Part shown: in pieces, positions 1,552 through 28,184 of the stretch
Numbering within the stretch: position 1 is the stretch's first letter
Layout of the letters: each line of letters begins with the position of its first letter
IMG/VR virus record: IMGVR_UViG_3300011271_000003
Coordinates: 1-64,000 of that record
Strand: one strand, 5' to 3'
Length of the DNA: 64,000 bases
Source of the DNA: a virus
Position numbers and translations under genes: made by a program
The notes under the pieces: model-generated
The model's input: only the letters and a program-made list of their open reading frames with translations
Database searches by the model: none
Told to the model about the DNA's origin: nothing

Positions 1552-4500
1552 ATGACTGATCTGCCTGATATTAGCGTTGAGCTGGAAGCCAAAATTAGCA
1601 AGTTCCTGCTCAACATGGCAATTGTCAAGCGCGCCATTAGAGATGTGTACAGCACTGCGCAGCGTGAGGCCCTAACGGCTTCGGCTAAGAGTCTTCAGGG
1701 TAGTACTTTTAAGAAGCTGTCCGACCAGGCAGTCAAAGATATGCTCAAGCAGGTAGAGAAAGACTCTGCAGCTGCAGGCCAAGCGTCTGGACGAAACTGG
1801 ATTAATGCGTTCAAGAAGGAGCTTAAGGGAGAGAAGGTAGGGAAGAACGTACCTAACTGGCTGCCCTGGATCGGCGCAGCGATGCCGGTGGCGCCTGCGG
1901 CTATGACGGGCGCAGTGGGCATCCTTGGTGCTCTTGGCGTTGCAGGTCTTGGAGCTGCAGCAGGTCTTGGCGCTTTTGCACTTGCTGCCAAAGAGGTTCT
2001 GAGTCCAGTTCAAACCGCGTTTACGGCTCTTGATAATGTCTCCAAGTCGATTCCAGCGAACGCTACTGCTCTCCAAATTTGGTTGGCCGCAGGCTCTACG
2101 ACTAGAACTACGGCCACAGGTAAAGTCAGAGTCTCCACTAACACGCTAGGGCCGGGCCTAGGTTTTCTAGCGAACCCGCATATCAACTACGGCATGTTGA
2201 CTCCTGCTCAGCAGAAGGCTCTGGTACTTCAGTACCAGAGCATGACTGGCCTGCCAACGTCTGAAAAAGCACAAATCACGGCTCTGATGGCCCAGCGGCG
2301 AGCTTACCTGCCGCTCAGTGGACCTCAGCGGGGCGCTCTGTCTCAGACGCAGCTGTTTGACAGTAGACTAGTAAGCGCTCAGCAGGCAGCGGCCCCTGCT
2401 ATACTTGGCCTTTACGGTGCGGCTCTTAGTGCGCTTGGCCCCGCATTGAAGTATATCACGCCCCTAGCGAACATAGCCGCAGGCGCGCTTATGCCTCTAG
2501 TTAAGGAGATAGGATCTGGCATAAAGTCGCAAGGCTTCGCCCAGTTCATGCTCATTGTCGAGCGGATGGCGAAGCTCGGCATTAGCTCTTTTGGTCAGTC
2601 TATTATTAACTTCGCCATTGGTATAGGTCACATCTTTGCGGCGCTTGCCAACTCTGGTGTTGTTCGGGTCGTGACTACAGACTTGCTTAAGATGTCGGCA
2701 GCATTTAGAAAGGATACGCTTCCGTCAAATAAGGGCTTCATGACGTTCATAGCGGATATGAAGCAGAACGCTCCTACCGTTGCTGCTATTCTTCGGAACC
2801 TAGTTGCGATTCTTGGAAACCTGTTTAAGGCACTCGGTGGTGGGATTGGTGCAGCGGAGCTGAAGGGACTGAATGATGTACTTGGCTTTATCAACATGTT
2901 GTCGAGAATTCCCAGCATTGGCCCGTTGATCTACAACCTGATTGCCCTTTCACTAATCTTTTCAAAGCTCGGCACGCTTCGACTCATAACTGCGTCACTA
3001 GAGTTCCTGGGTAAGGGGCTCGCCACGATGGCGCTTCTGAAGCTTGGTCCTCTAATCGGGGGCATGCTTGGCCTAGACGTTGCAGGTCTGAAGCTCGGCG
3101 AGATGTGGAAGACTATTGGCAAAGCCATGCTCACGTTCTCGGTCAACCTGATAAAGTCGTTTGCTCAGATGGTCGCCTCAGGGGCAGTGTGGGTCGCTAA
3201 GTCAATTGCTCAGGGAGCAGTGTGGGTCGCAGGAATGATTGCTAGAGCTGCGGTCGTTGTAGCTACTAACGTAGCTGCTGCTCTAGCTACGGCCGCAGCC
3301 TGGGTGGCTGCTAATGCAGCCATGATTATTGCAAGCGGAGGAATTATTCTTCTGCTTGCGGCTATTGTTATTGGCGTGTACGAACTGTATAAGCATTGGG
3401 GCGCCGTTTGGGGATTCATCAAGAAGATTGCAAAGGAAGCGTGGGACTTCATCTGGAACGGGTTCGGTAAGTTCCTGCTGCCTTTGCTAGGGCCAGTAGG
3501 CCTCCTAGCTCTGGGTATCATAGAGGTTTGGAAAAACTGGAAAACTATTTGGGGCTTCATTACTAGCCTAGTCCATGCTGCTTGGGACGGAAAGTTCGGC
3601 GTCAGAACTATAACGCTTGAAGCACTCAAGAACATCCTGGATGTCTTCTTTGCTTGGGGTAAGGGATTCCTCAGGATAGCAGCCGACGCGTTTGGGTGGG
3701 TGCCTGGCGTCGGCCCCAAGCTTAGAGCGGCGCAGAAAGATCTTAGTGCCTTTGAGACTAGCACTAATAGGACGCTTGACGGTCTCATTAAGAACCGTAC
3801 TGCGAACGTTAACTTCAAGTTTGGAAATGTTCCACCCAATCTAGCTATTCCGTCAAGCTATGCTGGCGGCACCGGTGGTGCAAGGGCCGGTTGGGCTTGG
3901 GTCGGAGAGAGAGGACCTGAACTCGTTAACATGCGTGGCGGTGAGACGGTAATTCCGTCTCACGTCTCAATGGGCTACGCTGATGGCACGACAGGCTGGC
4001 CTCCAGTCACGGGGTACATTCCCTCCGGTCCGCAGTGGCACGGGCTCATGACGGGTATCAGTGCAGGCATCAGTTTGGTCGACAGGCGCTTGGCTGTAGC
4101 TCTCAACAAGGAGCATGCTAGGGCGATGGCGGCCGCAGGTCCAGGCGGTGGTGCGCCGGCTGCGAATGCTGCACTGGCTCGGCGACTGTACCCGATGTAC
4201 GCTAGCGGGCCAGTATGGGACGCCTGGAACTACGTCGAGATGCGAGAAGCAGGCTGGAACCAGTTTGCCACCAACCCTAGCTCTGGTGCGTACGGAATTC
4301 CGCAGGCTCTCCCGCCGACGAAGATGCCGTTCGCCGCCCAGCGTGCCGGCGGATCAAACCCGACAGCGCAGATCCGGTGGATGTGGAACTATATGGCCGG
4401 GCGTTATGGTGGTCCAATCGGTGCCGCAGCTCATGAGCGGGCATTCAACTGGTATGGCGACGGCGGTTTCATGCCTCCCGGTAGCTACGGCATCGTGGGC

Positions 4501-11408: not shown

Positions 11409-11918
11409 TTAACTCGGCTTCAGTCTCAGGAGTAGCTCGTTTCTGAGCTCAGGTGGTGCCTTCGGGTTATTAACTGCCCAGTATGTGAAGTGGCGCATGG
11501 CGTCGTTGGCGTGCCTCCAGGGTGTCTTTGGCGTAATTAGGAGACCCATCCTGATAAGCTTGTCATCCGTTGCCCAACCGGTACCATTCTTCTTGCTCGG
11601 CTTAACACTTGATCCTTGCCAGACTACAGTTGCGCCGAATGCTTGCTGGAAGCGTTTAACAACGCCTATGTACTCTACGCTTACCAACTTGGCAAACTCG
11701 GCATTACGGTGGTCGAAGCGTTCGCATACAATAAGGAAGTGTTCGGGGTCGTAGACCGAGTCCATAAGGTGTTTAGTTGTCTCTTTCAGAAGCTGATCTA
11801 GCTTCCAGTGGTGGTCTTCCGGACCTAGCTGTCCATGCGTCCACATACCTCCTGGGACACCGGAGTCCCAGATGACATACCCTGTTGTTCCGCCTGGGTC
11901 GATTGCTATCACACGCAC
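11409..11918 (-). CDS. RuvC-like Holliday junction resolvase
   Basis: IAIDPGGTTG, VCERF and HANDAMRH catalytic motifs. Confidence 0.8.
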   Translation of the reverse strand: MRVIAIDPGGTTGYVIWDSGVPGGMWTHGQLGPEDHHWKLDQLLKETTKHLMDSVYDPEHFLIVCERFDHRNAEFAKLVSVEYIGVVKRFQQAFGATVVWQGSSVKPSKKNGTGWATDDKLIRMGLLITPKTPWRHANDAMRHFTYWAVNNPKAPPELRNELLLRLKPS

Positions 11919-11939
11919 TTTCTAACCTCCTGACTAACT

Positions 11940-11968
11940 AGTTAGAATGAAGTTAGACGCTCTAGCTC
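11940..11968 (+). repeat. Copy 1 of a 29-bp long-range inverted repeat (partner 48086-48114)
   Basis: AGTTAGAATGAAGTTAGACGCTCTAGCTC matches the reverse complement of 48086-48114 with 1 mismatch. Confidence 0.85.
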
Positions 11969-12067
11969 CCCAAGTCTTAGATTGACACGTGATCTTAAAG
12001 CTCCATAGGACAAACGAGGTCTAATCGCTGTCTATGCGCGGATATTAGCTCTCGTAGCAACGAGTTA

Positions 12068-12409
12068 TTAGCTAGGTACTTCGCTCTTCTGGCGAGCGCG
12101 TAGTGCCTGGTTATACTCACGTCTGTGCTGCACGCAATACGCCGACTTCGGGTGCGCTTTGGGTGCGCTACACTTGGCGCACGTTCCAGCAGCTTCTCGT
12201 TGTGTCAGGAGTGCTAGGTTGTGCGCGTTCTCGGTGTGTACCCATTCGGCGTGGTGGCCTGTGCAGTAGCCCGACGCTGCACCTACGAGTTCTTCGCACC
12301 CTTTGCGAAGACAGGCATCGTTTCCGTAAACGGTGATCATGTGCATACGGACGTGAGAGATGTGGTTCTTGTCCGTCTTTTCTCTAATGCAGAGTGTGCA
12401 GTTAGGCAT
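12068..12409 (-). CDS. Cys/His-rich putative zinc-binding protein
   Basis: Repeated CxxC...YCxxH motifs. Confidence 0.5.
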   Translation of the reverse strand: MPNCTLCIREKTDKNHISHVRMHMITVYGNDACLRKGCEELVGAASGYCTGHHAEWVHTENAHNLALLTQREAAGTCAKCSAPKAHPKSAYCVQHRREYNQALRARQKSEVPS

Positions 12410-21425: not shown

Positions 21426-22205
21426 TTACCTCCCGTTGATCCTACTCAGAAACTCCTGTTTGGCTGTTTTGTCGTGGTCAGCGAAGACGCCCCGCATTGC
21501 GGCAGTGTACGTCCTAGTCCCTGTGGCCTGAACTCCACGGATTGACATACAGGTATGCTCTGCTTCCATCGCGACAGCTACACCTAGTGGCGTCAACTTC
21601 TCTTCGAGACCGTCAGCTATCTCTGTCGTCAGTTCTTCCTGCGTACTAAGGCTTGCCGCACACTGCAGGACGTAGCGCGGGATCTTGCTGAGCCCTGCTA
21701 GCTTACCGTTTGGGATATAAGCTACGTGTGCTACACCTGTATACGGCAGTACGTGGTGTCTACACAGGGAAGCAAACCGAATGTCAGCGACTACTACCAT
21801 CTCGTCTGATGTCGTGTCGAAAGTTGTGAACTCCCAGCTTGTATCTGGCGTCGTCAACTCTTTGATCGCTTGCGCCATTCGCTTCGGAGTGTCCCGCTCC
21901 TGTGGATCTTCTATGTTTAGGTTCGCGCACACTTCCAGAAAGTACTGGATACAGTCAGTCGGATATCTGTGCTCTTCGTGATACTTTCTAGCGTCGTACG
22001 CGTCTACGATCTGCGACGTTGGATCGAACGCAGGCGTAAGGATGTCTTTGTTGAAAACGGTGCAGGCCCCGCAGAAGGCGGCTTCACCGTGTACACACCT
22101 CGTATCCTCGTCTTCGCCTGTAGGATGTCGCGGCGTGTAGTGGAACTTCCCGGTACCGAAACCGTACATCGGCACAGGCACTTCATGGTACGGAGGGGGC
22201 ATCAT
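21426..22205 (-). CDS. folE: GTP cyclohydrolase I
   Basis: DTPKRMA, SLCRHHVLP, GLSKIPR, QEELT, AEHTCMSIRGV. Confidence 0.93.
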   Translation of the reverse strand: MMPPPYHEVPVPMYGFGTGKFHYTPRHPTGEDEDTRCVHGEAAFCGACTVFNKDILTPAFDPTSQIVDAYDARKYHEEHRYPTDCIQYFLEVCANLNIEDPQERDTPKRMAQAIKELTTPDTSWEFTTFDTTSDEMVVVADIRFASLCRHHVLPYTGVAHVAYIPNGKLAGLSKIPRYVLQCAASLSTQEELTTEIADGLEEKLTPLGVAVAMEAEHTCMSIRGVQATGTRTYTAAMRGVFADHDKTAKQEFLSRINGR

Positions 22206-22522
22206 CGCTCCATCGCTGAGATGTCGATCAGAGCGGCCAGCATCTTGTCGACGCGGACTCTTTCCTGATCATAGTCTTTCCTAAGCGCCCGTGTATCTTC
22301 ATGACCTTCAAGTAGTGTCTGAAATGCTTCAGCTACGACATACGCGATCTCATAGCTGAAGACGTATGCGGCTGGTGACTCACAGCCAGGTGCGACTTTC
22401 TCCCACGAGCTTGCGCCGTCTTCGACTCGAAGACCTAGCCGAGAGCCGTCGTCCGAGCGGTGGATGACGTGGACGAAGACCTGGCCTCTCGCAGGGTCTT
22501 CCCTTACAAATGCCTTGATCAT
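22202..22522 (-). CDS. Hypothetical protein
   Basis: ATG overlapping the queE stop; tiled ORF. Confidence 0.55.
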   Translation of the reverse strand: MIKAFVREDPARGQVFVHVIHRSDDGSRLGLRVEDGASSWEKVAPGCESPAAYVFSYEIAYVVAEAFQTLLEGHEDTRALRKDYDQERVRVDKMLAALIDISAMER

Positions 22523-23270
22523 CGCTTCCTCTCGTTTCCCCAGAGTAGTACGTGCTGTCGAAGTGAGAGACCGTAACCTCGAGCGAGTGTCTCCTTTACG
22601 AGTATCTTGCCCCTGTAGATTTGTCCTTTTGAGGTAGTGCCCTCGGGCATGATCATAACGCAGCAAGGCTGGATGTTACACTCCTTTACGATCTGGTCGA
22701 TTTCGTCGAAGTCGCTGCTGCGAGATACAACGAACTTGAAGTAGGCGCCGCAGAGGTGCAGGTGTCGTAGCACTGCTGGTTTGTATCGCTTGCTACGTAC
22801 GTTACCACTGTTTTCCAGCTTAGGGGAGACGACGAACTGGCTCACGTGGAAACGGAATTCGGATAGCGGCATAATGGTGCCTGCAGTCTCGATATGCCTT
22901 GTACATCCGAGTTCCTGGAGGAGGCGCAGCAGGGGCAGAAGTGCAGACTGCTGCATCATGGGCTCGCCGCCGCTAATTATGATCTTCGTCGGCTTGTTGT
23001 CGATATCCCACAAATTGCGCAGGTGATCTACCACCTCGTCTGCCCCCATCTCGTGACACTCTTCGGCTTTGTCAGACAGAATTGGAATTAGGAGCTTGTC
23101 TGCCTTAGCTTGTGTGACAGCCCAGGTGTAGTGCGTGTCGCACCAGGTGCACTCTAGGTTGCATCCGAAAAGCCTGACGAAGAGGCAGTGCTGTCCCGTG
23201 TAAGGACCTTCGCCCTGCCTAATTGAATAGTCGGACCGAAGATTTCGTTCACCTTCAGGAGACTATTCAT
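22519..23270 (-). CDS. queE: 7-carboxy-7-deazaguanine synthase (radical SAM); frame interrupted by an 8-nt insert at 23215-23222
   Basis: MNSLLKVNEIFGPTIQ in one frame, then GEGPYTG..FVRLFGCNLECTWCDT..ISGGEPM..IETAG..VSPKL in another; AAGGAGG RBS. Confidence 0.88.
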
Positions 23271-23284
23271 AAGACATCACCTCC

Positions 23285-23794
23285 TTAAATGTGGCGCCAG
23301 GTTCGGCGCTTGACGATGCTTGATATGCATGTCTCGGTTACTTGGAACCTTCGGGCTAGGTTACTGATTGGCCACTTACCCTCGTGCAGTCTCCGAATCT
23401 CAAGAACACTTTCTTCGGTCAGCTTTGCTCGCGGATGCGTTTCTCCTAGCAGAAGTGTCCCGTCGCGCCGTCTATCTTCCCCGTTATTCTTGCTGTACGT
23501 TCCCCATACCAGATTTGGAAGAGAGTCGTCTAGAGGGCCTAGAGGTCCGTGGCAGGGAATTTGTCCCTTAGGCCGTGCGCACACGAATGCCTCTAGAACT
23601 AGAACGGCAACTTTACAGTTCTTGCTGCGTCCATTACGCGTAAGGGAAACTATATAATTGCTCCATGTCTGGTTCTTGTGAATCTTACACTTGGAGAGTA
23701 TCTTTCCGTCTAGGTTCCTCACATCACCTTGGTCGGAGACCTCGTAGAGGTCCTCGTAATCTACCACGGGCAGCCAGTGTGCGATGTTAGTCAT
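23285..23794 (-). mobile_element. Free-standing NUMOD4-HNH homing endonuclease
   Basis: W.PVVDYEDLYEVSDQGDVR (NUMOD4); LVLEAFV...CH...NLVWGT...N; C-terminal HTH. Confidence 0.85.
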
Positions 23795-23838
23795 GACGGC
23801 TGAATTGTCGGTCCGAATATCTCATTAACTTGCAGCAT
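23791..23838 (-). pseudogene. Duplicate queE N-terminus (MLQVNEIFGPTIQPS*) upstream of the HNH gene
   Basis: GGAGG RBS plus a 15-aa peptide matching the QueE start; its TGA overlaps the HNH ATG. Confidence 0.8.
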
Positions 23839-23840
23839 GT

Positions 23841-24296
23841 TCACCTCCCTGGCCGCGCTACATGGATCGGCTCGTCTAGCGACTTCACGGTTGCTGCGTT
23901 GACTGCCGTCTCATGCACGGTGACGCGTACTGGTAGCTCGAACTCGTTCTCAGCCCAGGCGCAGATCCACCTAGCGATATTTTCTGTCGTGGGGTCATCC
24001 GGTACGCAGGTCAGGCCTGGCAGGTGGTCGTCCTGCTCCTCGATCCCCATAAAGCAGGTCCAGGGGTCGTCCTTGTTCAGCAGGAGGTGGTGGTCGTAGG
24101 TTGAGTTAAGGTAGTGTCGGAACGCTGCCTTCGCAGCCCCGAACTCGATACCGCCCAGGATTCCTTCCTCGTCGATCTCCCCGTAGATTGTGAGCTCAAC
24201 CCACATAGAGTGCCCATGTATGTTCTTGCACTTACCAGCCGTCATAGTTAGTCTATGCGCGACTTCTATGTTGTGCCGAATTGTTATGCTAGGCAT
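23841..24296 (-). CDS. queD: 6-carboxy-5,6,7,8-tetrahydropterin synthase
   Basis: AHRL, CKNIHGHS, DH..LN, PTTENIA, VHET. Confidence 0.92.
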   Translation of the reverse strand: MPSITIRHNIEVAHRLTMTAGKCKNIHGHSMWVELTIYGEIDEEGILGGIEFGAAKAAFRHYLNSTYDHHLLLNKDDPWTCFMGIEEQDDHLPGLTCVPDDPTTENIARWICAWAENEFELPVRVTVHETAVNAATVKSLDEPIHVARPGR

Positions 24297-24929
24297 CCGT
24301 CCTCCCTTGGGTCTTGCGCTTGATCTCCTCTAGAATCGGGATTGGCCTTCGTTCGTGGCCGTGTGGGACAAAACCTGAATCGTGCAGGACATACTCTGGT
24401 GGTTTTCCTTCTAGGAGGTTGCAGAACTCGTCCGCCCACATCTGCGATGCCATCTGATGCTCTGCCGTGACGAGGTTCTTATCGCGCGTGAGAGCGACTG
24501 TTTGCAAGATTGCACCTGCACGCTTGAGAAGGTCTCGGGACCTGACTAGCGGAAAGAACGAGACCTTCTTGCCTCTTGCAACGTTGCGTATTGCTGGGAC
24601 TGAACAACAGATGGCTGCTATTGCAAGATCAGCCGCGTTGGCGTTGTCGAAGACAGTCTGTACTCGCCTGTAGTTCCAGTAGTTCTCGGTGTCCGCCATG
24701 TTGCCGGACACAATCATGACTCCCTGGTACCTCGCCATGTCGTAGGGATCTATGTCGTCTACAAGTAGAGTGATTTTGTTCGGCTGCATAGTGATCTCGT
24801 CCTGGATAATGTAGTCCGTAGAGACGAGGTCAAACGTGTGGCCACGATTCTGGATGACACCAAGGGCCGTCCAGAGTTCATGTCCACTAAATTATAGCGA
24901 CGGGCGCATATAACTAGAACGCGTGTCAC
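24289..24929 (-). CDS. DJ-1/PfpI (class I glutamine amidotransferase-like) protein; frame interrupted by a 5-nt insert at 24886-24890
   Basis: MTRVLVICARRYN, then GHELWTALG... in another frame; GVMIVSG, IAAICCS, DKNLVTA motifs. Confidence 0.75.
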
Positions 24930-24931
24930 TA

Positions 24932-25426
24932 CTAAACCACCGCCCTTCGGTTAATACCTTTTCTGCTCCGGAGCTCAGGTGGTGTCTCCCAAATGTTGAC
25001 GGCCTGAGTTACGGGGCGTGCATGAATTAGACAGAGCTTCTTGTGACACGAATGTGCCAGAACTAGTCCTTCAGGTACTGGTCCGTTATGTGCCACCCAC
25101 CAAAGTACATGAACAGGCTGGCTATTGTAGAGCCCATAGCCTTTCTTATGTACAGCGCCAGTCCACATTCTGCAGCCAGCCTTGTCTATGCGTGAATCAG
25201 CCATAAGGATGGCTATCATTGCTGGACCGTTTTCTAGTGCTAGGCGCGCTGTCTTTTGCTGCGAACTTCTTGCGTTTCCTGACATACAACTTCTACACCA
25301 GGAGTGTCGACCGTCTCTGCGGCCGCTTCCTCGTGGGAAGTCCTTGAACTTCTTCATCTCTCCGCATTTGGTGCATGCGGTTTGTATACCTGACGCAACA
25401 TCTTCTAGGTATACATCGCGAGTCAT
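24932..25426 (-). mobile_element. Free-standing HNH endonuclease with N-terminal zinc finger
   Basis: CTKC...DGRHSWCRSC; CRMWTG..GYG..VH...GPVPEGLVLAHSC..LC..H..VTQAVN. Confidence 0.8.
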
Positions 25427-26185: not shown

Positions 26186-27817
26186 TTAGGCCTCACGCTG
26201 AGGTCCCTCAGCTACTGCTTCCTTCCAGAACTCCGTGTCTGCATACTGTGTCTTGTCCCAGTTTTTAGGCGCCTTGGTTACGCTAGCGATCGCCTCTAGT
26301 CTCTCGACACAGGTTCCGCACCTGCCACAGTGAATTTCGTTGCCTCTGTAACAACTCCAGGTCAGCTCGAGAGGTACGCCCCGGCGGTACGCCTCGGCAG
26401 CTATGTCGTCTTTGGAGAGGTGGATGAAGGGGACGAGGATTTCGAAGTTAGGCCGAATGAATCCCTCGTTGCCCCACTGCAGCGTCTCTAGCACTGAGTG
26501 CATGAAGATAGGTCTGCAGTCTGGATACTGATAGTGGTCGCCGGCGTGCATACCGGCTGCGACATAACGGTACTTCGCGTTGACTGCAACAGCTGCAGCG
26601 ATCGAGAACATCATCATGTTCCGGTTAGGTACTACGGTAATGGCCATGTTGTCGGCACTGTTATGCGACAAGTAGCCGTCTGCGATGAGAGTACTTGTGC
26701 TGGTCCCTAGTGCTACGACAGCGCGGTTGCCTACAGGTTCGACGGATACCACTCTGACTGGACGAGTGCGCGAGCCTGCTATCCATCGTCCCTCCCAGAG
26801 ACGACGGGCGCTCTGCCTGAAACGTGTTGGCTGGAACATTCCAACGAACCGCAGAGCCGTCTGCTCACCTTCTAGGCGGAATCGGAGACACTCTGTTTTT
26901 GTCTCCTTTGTGTTCTTGAAGCCCTCGCTTGGTTGGAATCCGAACTTCTTGAGTGCAACCTTGACGCGCTCAAGAGTCTCTCCAGGATTCTGCGAGAATT
27001 GGAAGTTCGTGTCATGCAGGGTGGCTTCGCCATCCATGAAGCCTGCAAGGTATCCGGCGTCACTATCAGTTTGTACTTCCCAAGGGTTCAGGTAGAGCGA
27101 AAGCGTGTCACCGGGCATGAGTCCTAGAGAGTGTCCACTAGGACCTGAGGTAACCGTTGGGTCGTACGTTTTGCGCCACCTACGCCCTGTAGCCAGACCA
27201 CCGCCGCTACGTCCTCTTCTAGCTACCCAAAGGTGGTCGTAGCTAGCTACGACCTCTTGTCCCGTCTCTAGTACTATGCGAGCACAGGGCAGAACCTTAA
27301 CGCTGGTTGCCGTTACTGTCGATTCCTGCAGCTTCGAAGCTGGTTTGCCCTGTTGTCCTGAGCGTAGCTCTTCATCGAAGCCTACGACCTTGTCTCCTAC
27401 TGCTAGGTCTTCGATATTGCGCCACACAAGGTCAGTGCATAGTACCTTCGTGCCTGGTGCTAGACAGTAGTGACCTTCCGGAACTTCAATTCGGGAATGC
27501 ACCGTAGCAGTGTTGCGGTCCAACACCGTAGGCTGCGGAGGCGAGGTGAGAGCGGAGTTGCTGATCAGATCGGTAATACTGGACAGGTCGATCCGCGACC
27601 ACCGGAGCCCCAAGCGTTCCGCGGTCCACAGGGCGTATTGGAGCTCCTTCAGGTGCCTCTGGCCGTAGTCGAACGAAAGGAGGTGCGGGCGCTTTCCGAG
27701 ATGTACGAGGTGGTAGGCCGTGGTAATGCTGTCCAGTCCGCCTGAGACAATGGCGACACCATCGCTCTTGTCGTTCTCCCAATCAGGCTCGTACCTAGAA
27801 ACAAGCTCTGTTCCCAT
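26186..27817 (-). CDS. queC: 7-cyano-7-deazaguanine synthase, intein-containing
   Basis: SGGLDS, SFDYGQRH..E, VPNRN, YPDCRP, TWSCY...HCGRCGTC.ER; AAAGGAG RBS. Confidence 0.95.
   Translation of the reverse strand: MGTELVSRYEPDWENDKSDGVAIVSGGLDSITTAYHLVHLGKRPHLLSFDYGQRHLKELQYALWTAERLGLRWSRIDLSSITDLISNSALTSPPQPTVLDRNTATVHSRIEVPEGHYCLAPGTKVLCTDLVWRNIEDLAVGDKVVGFDEELRSGQQGKPASKLQESTVTATSVKVLPCARIVLETGQEVVASYDHLWVARRGRSGGGLATGRRWRKTYDPTVTSGPSGHSLGLMPGDTLSLYLNPWEVQTDSDAGYLAGFMDGEATLHDTNFQFSQNPGETLERVKVALKKFGFQPSEGFKNTKETKTECLRFRLEGEQTALRFVGMFQPTRFRQSARRLWEGRWIAGSRTRPVRVVSVEPVGNRAVVALGTSTSTLIADGYLSHNSADNMAITVVPNRNMMMFSIAAAVAVNAKYRYVAAGMHAGDHYQYPDCRPIFMHSVLETLQWGNEGFIRPNFEILVPFIHLSKDDIAAEAYRRGVPLELTWSCYRGNEIHCGRCGTCVERLEAIASVTKAPKNWDKTQYADTEFWKEAVAEGPQREA
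26660..27466 (-). mobile_element. Intein with LAGLIDADG endonuclease in QueC
   Basis: CLAPGT...YLAGFMDGEA...YLSHN followed by S. Confidence 0.92.
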
Positions 27818-28184
27818 TCTTTCTCCTTTGTAGTACCAGTTGTATGGTGACTCGTCTAGGCCTGCCTCAGGGCTCTCTAGCCGCCCAAGTGGCATGAGCG
27901 GTGTCGGCTTTACGTAGGTTCCTGGAATCGATTGGGGTCTCATGGTAGGTCTCCTCCTCCGTGATAGGCATCCGGCCCTTCCCACCAGGGCCTAGGACCG
28001 TCGTTGCCATAGCGACGGTACATGTAGTCACACATCCAGGCAATGCTGTCTACGACAGGCACTCCTGGTGCTGGGCCGCTAGGGTCCACGTGCGTGCCGT
28101 AATAGCGGCTGAAGCTGCGCTTGACCGCCAGAATATCTGCTAGAGGATCTGCGTCAGGCCTGTCCCATGGGAGATGCTCAGGCA

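Follow-up and report, generated by a model that had tools for sequence, protein, structure and literature searches.

The interrupted queE gene and its surroundings

The window (the whole stretch of viral DNA that was analysed, 64,000 nucleotides) derives from a 98.8-kb IMG/VR virus record from soil with terminal repeats. Its minus strand carries in this order: queD; a displaced copy of the queE start (copy 1); the gene of an HNH endonuclease; a Shine-Dalgarno (SD) sequence and ATG with a second copy of the queE start (copy 2); a gap of 8 nt; and the body of queE (Table 1). The SD sequence, TAAGGAGGTGAT, overlaps the stop of the upstream gene. It is followed by the ATG at 23270, which opens a frame (frame 0) of 16 codons, MNSLLKVNEIFGPTIQ, that runs into TTA; decoding of this TTA leads to a dead end of 38 aa in total. 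The queE body, QGEGPYTGQHCLFVRLFGCNLECTWCD..., lies in the -1/+2 frame and extends over 232 codons from CAG (23217-23215) to the stop at 22521-22519, with QGEGPYTGQH... at its beginning and the radical-SAM motif CxxxCxxC in the form CNLECTWC. Upstream, the body frame is closed by TAG at 23265-23263, and it holds no ATG, GTG or TTG before 23049, a position already beyond the Fe-S cluster motif; the first possible start in this frame is residue 57 of the body. Deletion of 8 nt (23222-23215), written as TTAGGCAG or equivalently CAATTAGG, yields ...EIFGPTIQGEGP... and restores EIFGPTIQGEG. The restored motif is that of about 100 uninterrupted relatives and of the solved B. subtilis QueE 5TH5 (compared via relative P0002), and the N-terminal E-I-F-x-x-x-Q-G-E-G motif of QueE is complete only with the 8 nt skipped. 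All this agrees with the sequence-only reading, which had described a strong ribosome-binding site and ATG leading to TTA, the conserved GEG and CxxxCxxC in another frame without an upstream start, a short dead end upon decoding of TTA, and a hop from CAA to CAG that rebuilds QGEG exactly.

Table 1. Position of the features of the queE region and of the second TTA-led gap in the window
Feature	Position	Strand	Remarks
queE body, from GGC (G of QGEG) to stop	22519..23214	minus	Radical-SAM CNLECTWC cluster; Pfam Radical_SAM and Fer4_12
Dead-end continuation of frame 0, LGRAKVLTRDSTASSSGFSDAT and stop, if UUA is decoded	23154..23222	minus	TAG stop at 23156-23154
8-nt coding gap UUAGGCAG	23215..23222	minus	UUA 23222-23220, putative A-site codon; CAG 23217-23215, putative landing codon
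Copy 2, element-borne replacement start, ATG...MNSLLKVNEIFGPTIQ	23223..23270	minus	Last codon CAA (23225-23223), take-off
Extended Shine-Dalgarno TAAGGAGGTGAT	23276..23287	minus	12 nt; full complement of the 16S rRNA 3' end (anti-SD)
Homing endonuclease gene, 169 aa	23285..23794	minus	NUMOD4 (Pfam E 9.5e-7) and HNH-family core (PHROG HNH endonuclease families E 1e-27)
Copy 1, displaced original queE start, MLQVNEIFGPTIQ followed by PS and stop	23791..23838	minus	ATG 23838; between queD and the nuclease gene
queD (6-pyruvoyl-tetrahydropterin synthase family)	23841..24296	minus	Pfam PTPS, E 1.8e-23
Second gap, in a DJ-1/PfpI-like gene, GTG...MTRVLVICARRYN	24883..24929	minus	AAT TTAGT GGA (...RRYN; 24893-24883); 5 nt, TTA-led, landing triplet AGT
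Second HNH_3 endonuclease gene	24932-25426	minus	Pfam HNH_3

The queE body is recognised by Pfam as Radical_SAM (6.8e-7) and Fer4_12 (4.5e-7), and its five best NCBIfam matches are all QueE models (E 9e-27 to 5e-11), albeit below the equivalog cut-offs. It shares 62% identity with the body of the closest phage found (L002), and about 50% with its nearest cellular relatives, which are from Streptomyces and Kitasatospora; megablast of the queE locus against GenBank phages gave no match. An error of assembly had been named as a possible refutation of the hop: two Logan assemblies (X1 and X2, at about 30x and from an independent assembler) reproduce positions 22500-24300 without a single difference, which rules out an assembler artefact. 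As X1 and X2 possibly stem from the source sample, a variant specific to that sample is not excluded. Two further contigs (X3 and X4) are fragments of the window only, and neither spans the gap; the sequencing runs listed for the sequence include none of RNA.

The GTP_cyclohydroI, PTPS and QueC families of Pfam are found on the same strand as queE and within 5 kb of it, and queE represents one step in the making of modified DNA bases. The sequence-only reading had taken folE, queD and queC to be intact. The Pfam matches of folE (21426-22205) and queD are clean; that of queC (26186-27985, minus strand) to QueC falls into two parts, separated by an insert of ca. 265 aa. This insert begins with Cys, ends in SHN/S and carries a LAGLIDADG-like motif (YLAGFMDGEATL); by eye it looks like an intein with a nuclease domain, and Pfam matched the QueC halves only.

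Copy 1 and copy 2 encode the same amino acids, with different bases at 8 of 10 third positions. The SD sequence of the original start is located in the 3' end of queD, and the stop of copy 1 overlaps the ATG of the endonuclease gene (TCATGA); copy 1 is now a leader ORF coupled to the nuclease gene. The endonuclease cassette and the duplicated N-terminus, neither of which figured in the sequence-only reading, offer the reason why the gap exists. A search of IMG/VR with the nuclease protein of the window gave only distant partial matches, none of them beside queE. An Rfam scan of 22400-24400 with E up to 10 detected no intron (no Intron_gpI) or other RNA family, and only about 75 nt of the ca. 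585-nt insert are non-coding; a group I intron with its homing endonuclease is unlikely on both counts. The RNA fold around the gap is unremarkable (z -1.4 to -2.0; z -0.1 for the gap of phage L002), and the pairing between gap and downstream codons that is apparent in the window is not conserved. A perfect 9-bp helix at 23224-23269 (minus strand) joins the start region UGAAUAGUC (23269-23261) to the codons before the gap, GACUAUUCA (23232-23224), and encloses an inner 8-bp stem (z = -2.0 for the 126-nt fold); it could hide the queE start codon.

The TTA at the head of the gap is the rarest sense codon of the phage: in the 41 non-overlapping long ORFs of the window it was counted 8 times among ca. 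12,800 codons, the next rarest codon 81 times, and this at a G+C content of only 54%. In Streptomyces, the decoding of UUA depends on the bldA tRNA (PMC10732093). The scarcity of TTA, also new relative to the sequence-only reading, is the signature of such hosts. A second gap led by TTA occurs in the same phage, in a gene for a DJ-1/PfpI-like protein that starts immediately after the stop of the second endonuclease gene; the homologue of this gene in phage L002 is continuous. No tRNA genes are present in the window.

Interrupted queE genes in other actinophages and in actinobacterial chromosomes

Pattern scans for FGPT codons, 5-35 free bases and QGEG codons, in which stops were not required, uncovered 24 further interrupted queE genes that the sequence-only reading had not considered: five in phages (including the Gordonia phage Sour) and 19 in actinobacterial genomes, each locus being counted once. 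Without the window, the gaps measure 5 nt (n=7), 6 nt (n=2), 7 nt (n=12) or 8 nt (n=3); with the window there are 25 interrupted genes, four of them with 8-nt gaps, and all three frames are represented. All 24 (window excluded) obey one rule: the gap starts with an in-frame TAG, TGA or TAA directly after a Thr codon (ACY), and it ends in NCY (ACC, GCC, TCC or GCT). As far as the codons tell, such an end would keep two strong pairs with the Thr tRNA; the conserved final CY could in part represent a 2-nt duplication at the origin of the insert. The gaps fall into all three frames, those of 6 nt being in frame, and no single frameshift serves all of these genes; a hop of the Thr tRNA would.

The closest phage, L002, has the same layout as the window with another nuclease (phrog_5046) and a 5-nt gap, ACT TGA CC ATC. 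Three more phages emerged from the IMG/VR pattern scan, namely L130 (ACT TAG CT), L134 (ACT TGA CC; nuclease GIY-YIG) and L156 (ACT TAA CC; nuclease HNH_3), and the cassette layout is analogous in L002, L130 and L134. The fifth is the cultured Gordonia phage Sour (L138, NC_042132), with the gap ACC TAG C ACC (2441-2540; ca. 2994-3093 of the record). Its gp5, upstream, is a 56-aa remnant of an HNH endonuclease (phrog_826), and GenBank starts its gp6 (QueE) at a GTG downstream of QGEG. No close relatives of Sour were found, and the queE of Rosebush is intact. A nuclease gene or remnant lies upstream in all six viral cases: HNH/NUMOD4, HNH_3, GIY-YIG, phrog_5046 (twice), and the HNH remnant of Sour. 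The interrupted genes have in common the motif GGAGGTGRTGYCNTATG, which contains the SD sequence TAAGGAGGTGAT and, together with the FGPT codons, occurs in interrupted genes only.

Two of these phages show peculiarities of their own. In L134 (about 4200-4260, minus strand) the ATG after the conserved SD motif does not share the frame of the EVFGPT codons (53 nt, not 51), and this copy may be decaying or another start may be used. In L130 the nuclease ORF (11598-12197, plus strand) begins with MSDTIDVSSF..., similar to the replacement start of queE, MSLKPDTIDVSEIFGPT; it seems that the old start of queE has been fused in frame to the nuclease.

In bacterial genomes the pattern scan returned eight interrupted queE genes; when 301 genomes of Streptomyces species were searched, the 16 closest included 12 with an interrupted queE. 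The interrupted chromosomal queE genes of Streptomyces and other actinobacteria (among L332-L347 and L215-L329) stand beside queD and have stop-led gaps of 5-8 nt. In Sour and the 19 bacterial genomes the gaps persist without a nuclease gene or copy 1 (Sour retaining only its HNH remnant). Annotation pipelines call the interrupted chromosomal genes from MQGEG or later, and the N-terminus is missing or out of frame in about half of the best 120 representatives of actinobacterial QueE clusters. Scanning metagenomes with an alignment of QueE gave 30 loci, all with uninterrupted N-termini. P0053, which starts with LTIQGEG, was discarded as a further case: it is probably cut by a contig end, and its relatives are uninterrupted.

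Every interrupted queE body is intact. Nei-Gojobori estimates of dN/dS were 0.14 (dS 0.51) for L343/L345, which share the gap TAGCGCC, and 0.18-0.20 (dS 0.70-1.12) for the interrupted pairs L343/L340, L346/L347 and L335/L332, with 0.18-0.22 as the range over the other interrupted pairs; the uninterrupted pair L337/L338 gave 0.21 (dS 0.33). Interrupted bodies are hence under purifying selection (dN/dS 0.14-0.22) in the pairs with dS of at least 0.5. The very close interrupted genes L332/L333/L334, whose gaps differ solely at the first base of the landing triplet (TAGC-T/G/A-CC), have a dN/dS of about 0.55 at dS <0.1, a noisy value indicating only weak constraint. The 10 codons before the gap show a pN of 0-0.045 vs a pS of 0.26-0.78, and a start codon in the body frame before QGEG is absent in 7 of 14 loci, the window included. 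Because the bodies are intact, both sides of the gap are under selection and body-frame starts are missing in half of the loci, the two halves of queE appear, on comparative grounds, to be kept as one protein across the stop-containing gap in these relatives.

A proposed short bypass in the window and its rivals

We read the queE of the window as a short translational bypass linked to a homing endonuclease, at a probability of roughly 0.65 and without RNA or protein data for this phage or any interrupted queE. A mobile cassette would have brought into the 5' end of queE the HNH gene, a very strong SD sequence with a new start, a second version of codons 1-16, and the 8-nt gap. The gap would interrupt the DNA presumably recognised by the nuclease and so shield the phage from its own enzyme, a role inferred from the MobA element of phage T4. 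Ribosomes would initiate at ATG 23270, translate MNSLLKVNEIFGPTIQ, and come to a stall at the very rare UUA, now in the A site, with CAA and its peptidyl-tRNA(Gln) in the P site. This tRNA(Gln) would then un-pair, the mRNA slide by 8 nt and pairing resume at CAG, whereupon decoding would restart at GGC and give the canonical enzyme (...TIQGEGPYTG...). Decoding of UUA would instead produce the 38-aa dead-end peptide, so that the yield of QueE would hinge on the availability of the tRNA that reads UUA. In the relatives examined TIQGEG does not vary, and going by the sequence an 8-nt hop from CAA to CAG with UUA in the A site would be the only event giving this canonical junction. The hop put forward by the sequence-only reading is supported, by inference only and without protein evidence, by the rarity of TTA, the 24 related gaps, the purifying selection and the precedent of phage phiHau3.

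Both the hop and its efficiency remain inferences, and several points count against them. To land on CAG, tRNA(Gln-UUG) has to make a U-G wobble pair; short hops that arise spontaneously in E. coli occur at about 1% or less; the nascent chain at take-off is only 16 residues long; and a QueE of the host may make a dead phage copy tolerable. The gap of the window is also atypical for the queE family, being led by UUA and not by a stop, situated two codons further downstream, and served by a Gln instead of a Thr tRNA, and the evidence from the family consequently transfers by analogy only. Moreover, as no close relative of the window has the same gap, selection after the origin of the gap is not measurable.

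The most serious rival, which we hold to be unlikely without being able to set it aside, is a dead gene: an 8-nt scar, left behind by the cassette or by error-prone repair after it cut, would shield the site but inactivate queE, the phage relying on a host QueE or on none. Homing endonucleases can spread despite a cost, many bacteria encode QueE, and no near relative shows persistence of the gap; furthermore AGGCAG (23220-23215) is complementary to CTGCCT (23187-23182), and such inserts can come from templated repair. Yet the 232-codon body is intact, and the start still has its strong SD, its ATG and the exact codons of the N-terminus. The first codon of the gap is the rarest of the phage, its last is synonymous with the take-off codon, and a second TTA-led gap occurs in the same phage. 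The 24 related gaps obey a single rule under purifying selection, and synonymous changes alone could have protected the site free of cost. A recent and tolerated knock-out of the window's queE is nonetheless not excluded.

Recoding of another kind would leave the QGEG motif unbroken: either tRNA(Ile) on AUU (23228-23226) makes a +5 hop onto AUU (23223-23221), giving TIRQGEG, or a -1 shift gives IQIRQGEG. The hop can moreover invoke two identical AUU codons 5 nt apart, 5 nt being a common gap length in the family, and it remains possible. We judge this class of events very unlikely all the same: the A-site codon at the AUU take-off is an ordinary CAA that would cause no pause; a slippery heptamer is absent; extra residues would enter a junction that is invariant in the uninterrupted relatives examined; and the family includes in-frame gaps of 6 nt that no frameshift can solve.

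Little credence can be given to a two-piece or shortened QueE, in which the short upstream ORF merely delivers ribosomes and the body is initiated separately downstream. A TTG or GTG in the body frame is indeed found near the gap in L002, L134, L292 and Sour, and many such genes are annotated from MQGEG, but half of the 14 loci lack such a start and the window has none before residue 57 of its body. Frame 0 of the window has no stop at the gap either, and the N-terminal codons are under purifying selection.

Next to no weight attaches to removal at the RNA level, be it by an intron spanning the nuclease gene and copy 2 (which would join copy 1 to the body) or by an 8-nt micro-intron. Different nuclease families at one site are typical of introns, and with copy 1 ending in ...ATT CAG and the gap in ...GG/CAG the U/G rules for splice sites could be satisfied. 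The insert, however, has no Rfam match and too little non-coding sequence for a group I core, Sour and the 19 bacterial genomes keep their gaps without nuclease gene or copy 1, and introns of 5-8 nt in bacteria have no known mechanism. An assembly or sequencing error, conceivable for a genome assembled from a metagenome, is practically ruled out by the identical sequence from the independent assembler at about 30x, by the nature of the feature (8 nt, not a homopolymer), and by the analogous gap that is real in the cultured and finished phage Sour.

Two other candidates were rejected as well: transcriptional slippage, there being no homopolymer run, and suppressor tRNAs, as no tRNA is encoded in the window and the frame would stay broken after read-through.

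Relation to known bypass systems and significance

To our knowledge, yeast mitochondria apart, the main known cases of programmed bypassing are T4 gene 60 and its homologues; a single candidate comes from phiHau3. The latter, a Streptomyces phage, and two prophages carry short UUA-led gaps in the gene of the large terminase (Smith et al. 2013, as cited in Antonov et al. 2023, RNA Biol, PMC10732093). For the phiHau3 terminase, UUA-led gaps of 7-10 nt allowed the full-length protein to be made in Streptomyces, and the junction peptide of a UAA variant was identified by mass spectrometry in E. coli (PMC10732093); mass-spectrometry evidence for a UUA-type 10-nt bypass in a Streptomyces phage is already published (PMC10732093). 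The phiHau3 case resembles the window in several respects: both are actinophages in which a very rare UUA opens a gap that changes the frame (7-10 nt in phiHau3) within an invariant protein junction where extra residues are unlikely, and for both take-off and landing of a P-site tRNA has been proposed, with possible coupling to the supply of the bldA tRNA. The two differ in that the genes of the window are queE (with a gap of 8 nt) and the DJ-1-like gene, and that its gap is tied to a homing endonuclease cassette and a duplicated gene start; no homing endonuclease link is mentioned in PMC10732093. The queE gap is further related to a larger, stop-led family, and the window, unlike phiHau3, is without experimental evidence.

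T4 gene 60 owes its bypass to MobA, a homing-endonuclease element (Bonocora et al. 2011, cited by Manning & Atkins 2022, 10.1101/2022.08.31.505936). Besides its nuclease, the element comprises a bypass cassette and a stretch of its own with homology to the displaced host sequence, and nuclease swaps as well as loss of the nuclease with retention of the bypass have occurred (10.1101/2022.08.31.505936). The queE cassette has the same ingredients: a nuclease gene, an element-borne homologous stretch and an untranslated gap, all placed inside the target gene; at the head of the gap, a stop or hungry codon; matching take-off and landing codons; and a nuclease family that may be exchanged or disappear without loss of the gap. 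The T4 gap is thought to block self-cleavage, and by analogy we infer the same role for the queE gap. The differences are nevertheless considerable. The queE gaps span 5-8 nt instead of the 50 nt of gene 60; no take-off stem-loop or gap-internal SD is evident (window fold z -1.4); the nascent peptide has only 13-17 residues; and the take-off and landing codons are synonymous, not identical. Since the host gene and the nucleases are unrelated, the queE cassette is not homologous to MobA, and its displaced queE start survives as a mini-ORF. By this comparison, the queE cassette would work like the MobA element but is not a member of it.

Weiss and co-workers in 1987 and Gallant and Lindsley in 1998 reportedly described tRNAs of E. 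coli that hop at a low level over a stop or a hungry codon. Like the hops proposed for queE, these are short and forward (+5, +6), with a stop crossed between a sense codon and its synonym; they are, however, engineered or adventitious and reach about 1% or less, whereas the queE sites are natural, conserved and needed for an enzyme.

A literature search on QueE in combination with bypassing or frameshift returned nothing relevant, and no paper on a queE gap was found. What sets the putative short UUA-led bypass of the window apart from the known ones is its tie to a homing-endonuclease cassette and to a large queE family that is apparently undescribed. Whether queE constitutes a large natural family of 5-8-nt, stop- or UUA-led bypass sites, spread among actinophages by swappable homing endonucleases and then fixed without the nuclease in many chromosomes of Streptomyces and other Actinobacteria, is a question on which we consider the odds to be even.

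The interrupted genes flag a systematic annotation error, queE being called from MQGEG or, as in gp6 of Sour, from a start after QGEG. They also form a natural mutational series, with three types of stop, four gap lengths and a first landing base that varies, from which the rules of take-off and landing could be worked out, and Sour and many Streptomyces strains provide cultured material in which they can be tested. The junction peptide predicted for the hop in the window is VNEIFGPTIQGEGPYTGQHCLFVR, and that for interrupted queE of Streptomyces is LVVNEIFGPTVQGEGPS... A second, unrelated and much shorter class of bypass would make ribosome hopping a recurrent answer to the insertion of DNA into invariant coding motifs without change of the protein. 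If the reading of queE as a family of bypass sites is true, a chromosomal bacterial enzyme would for the first time be known to need a bypass, and in the phage of the window the UUA version would tie the synthesis of a DNA-modification enzyme to the state of the bldA tRNA in the host.
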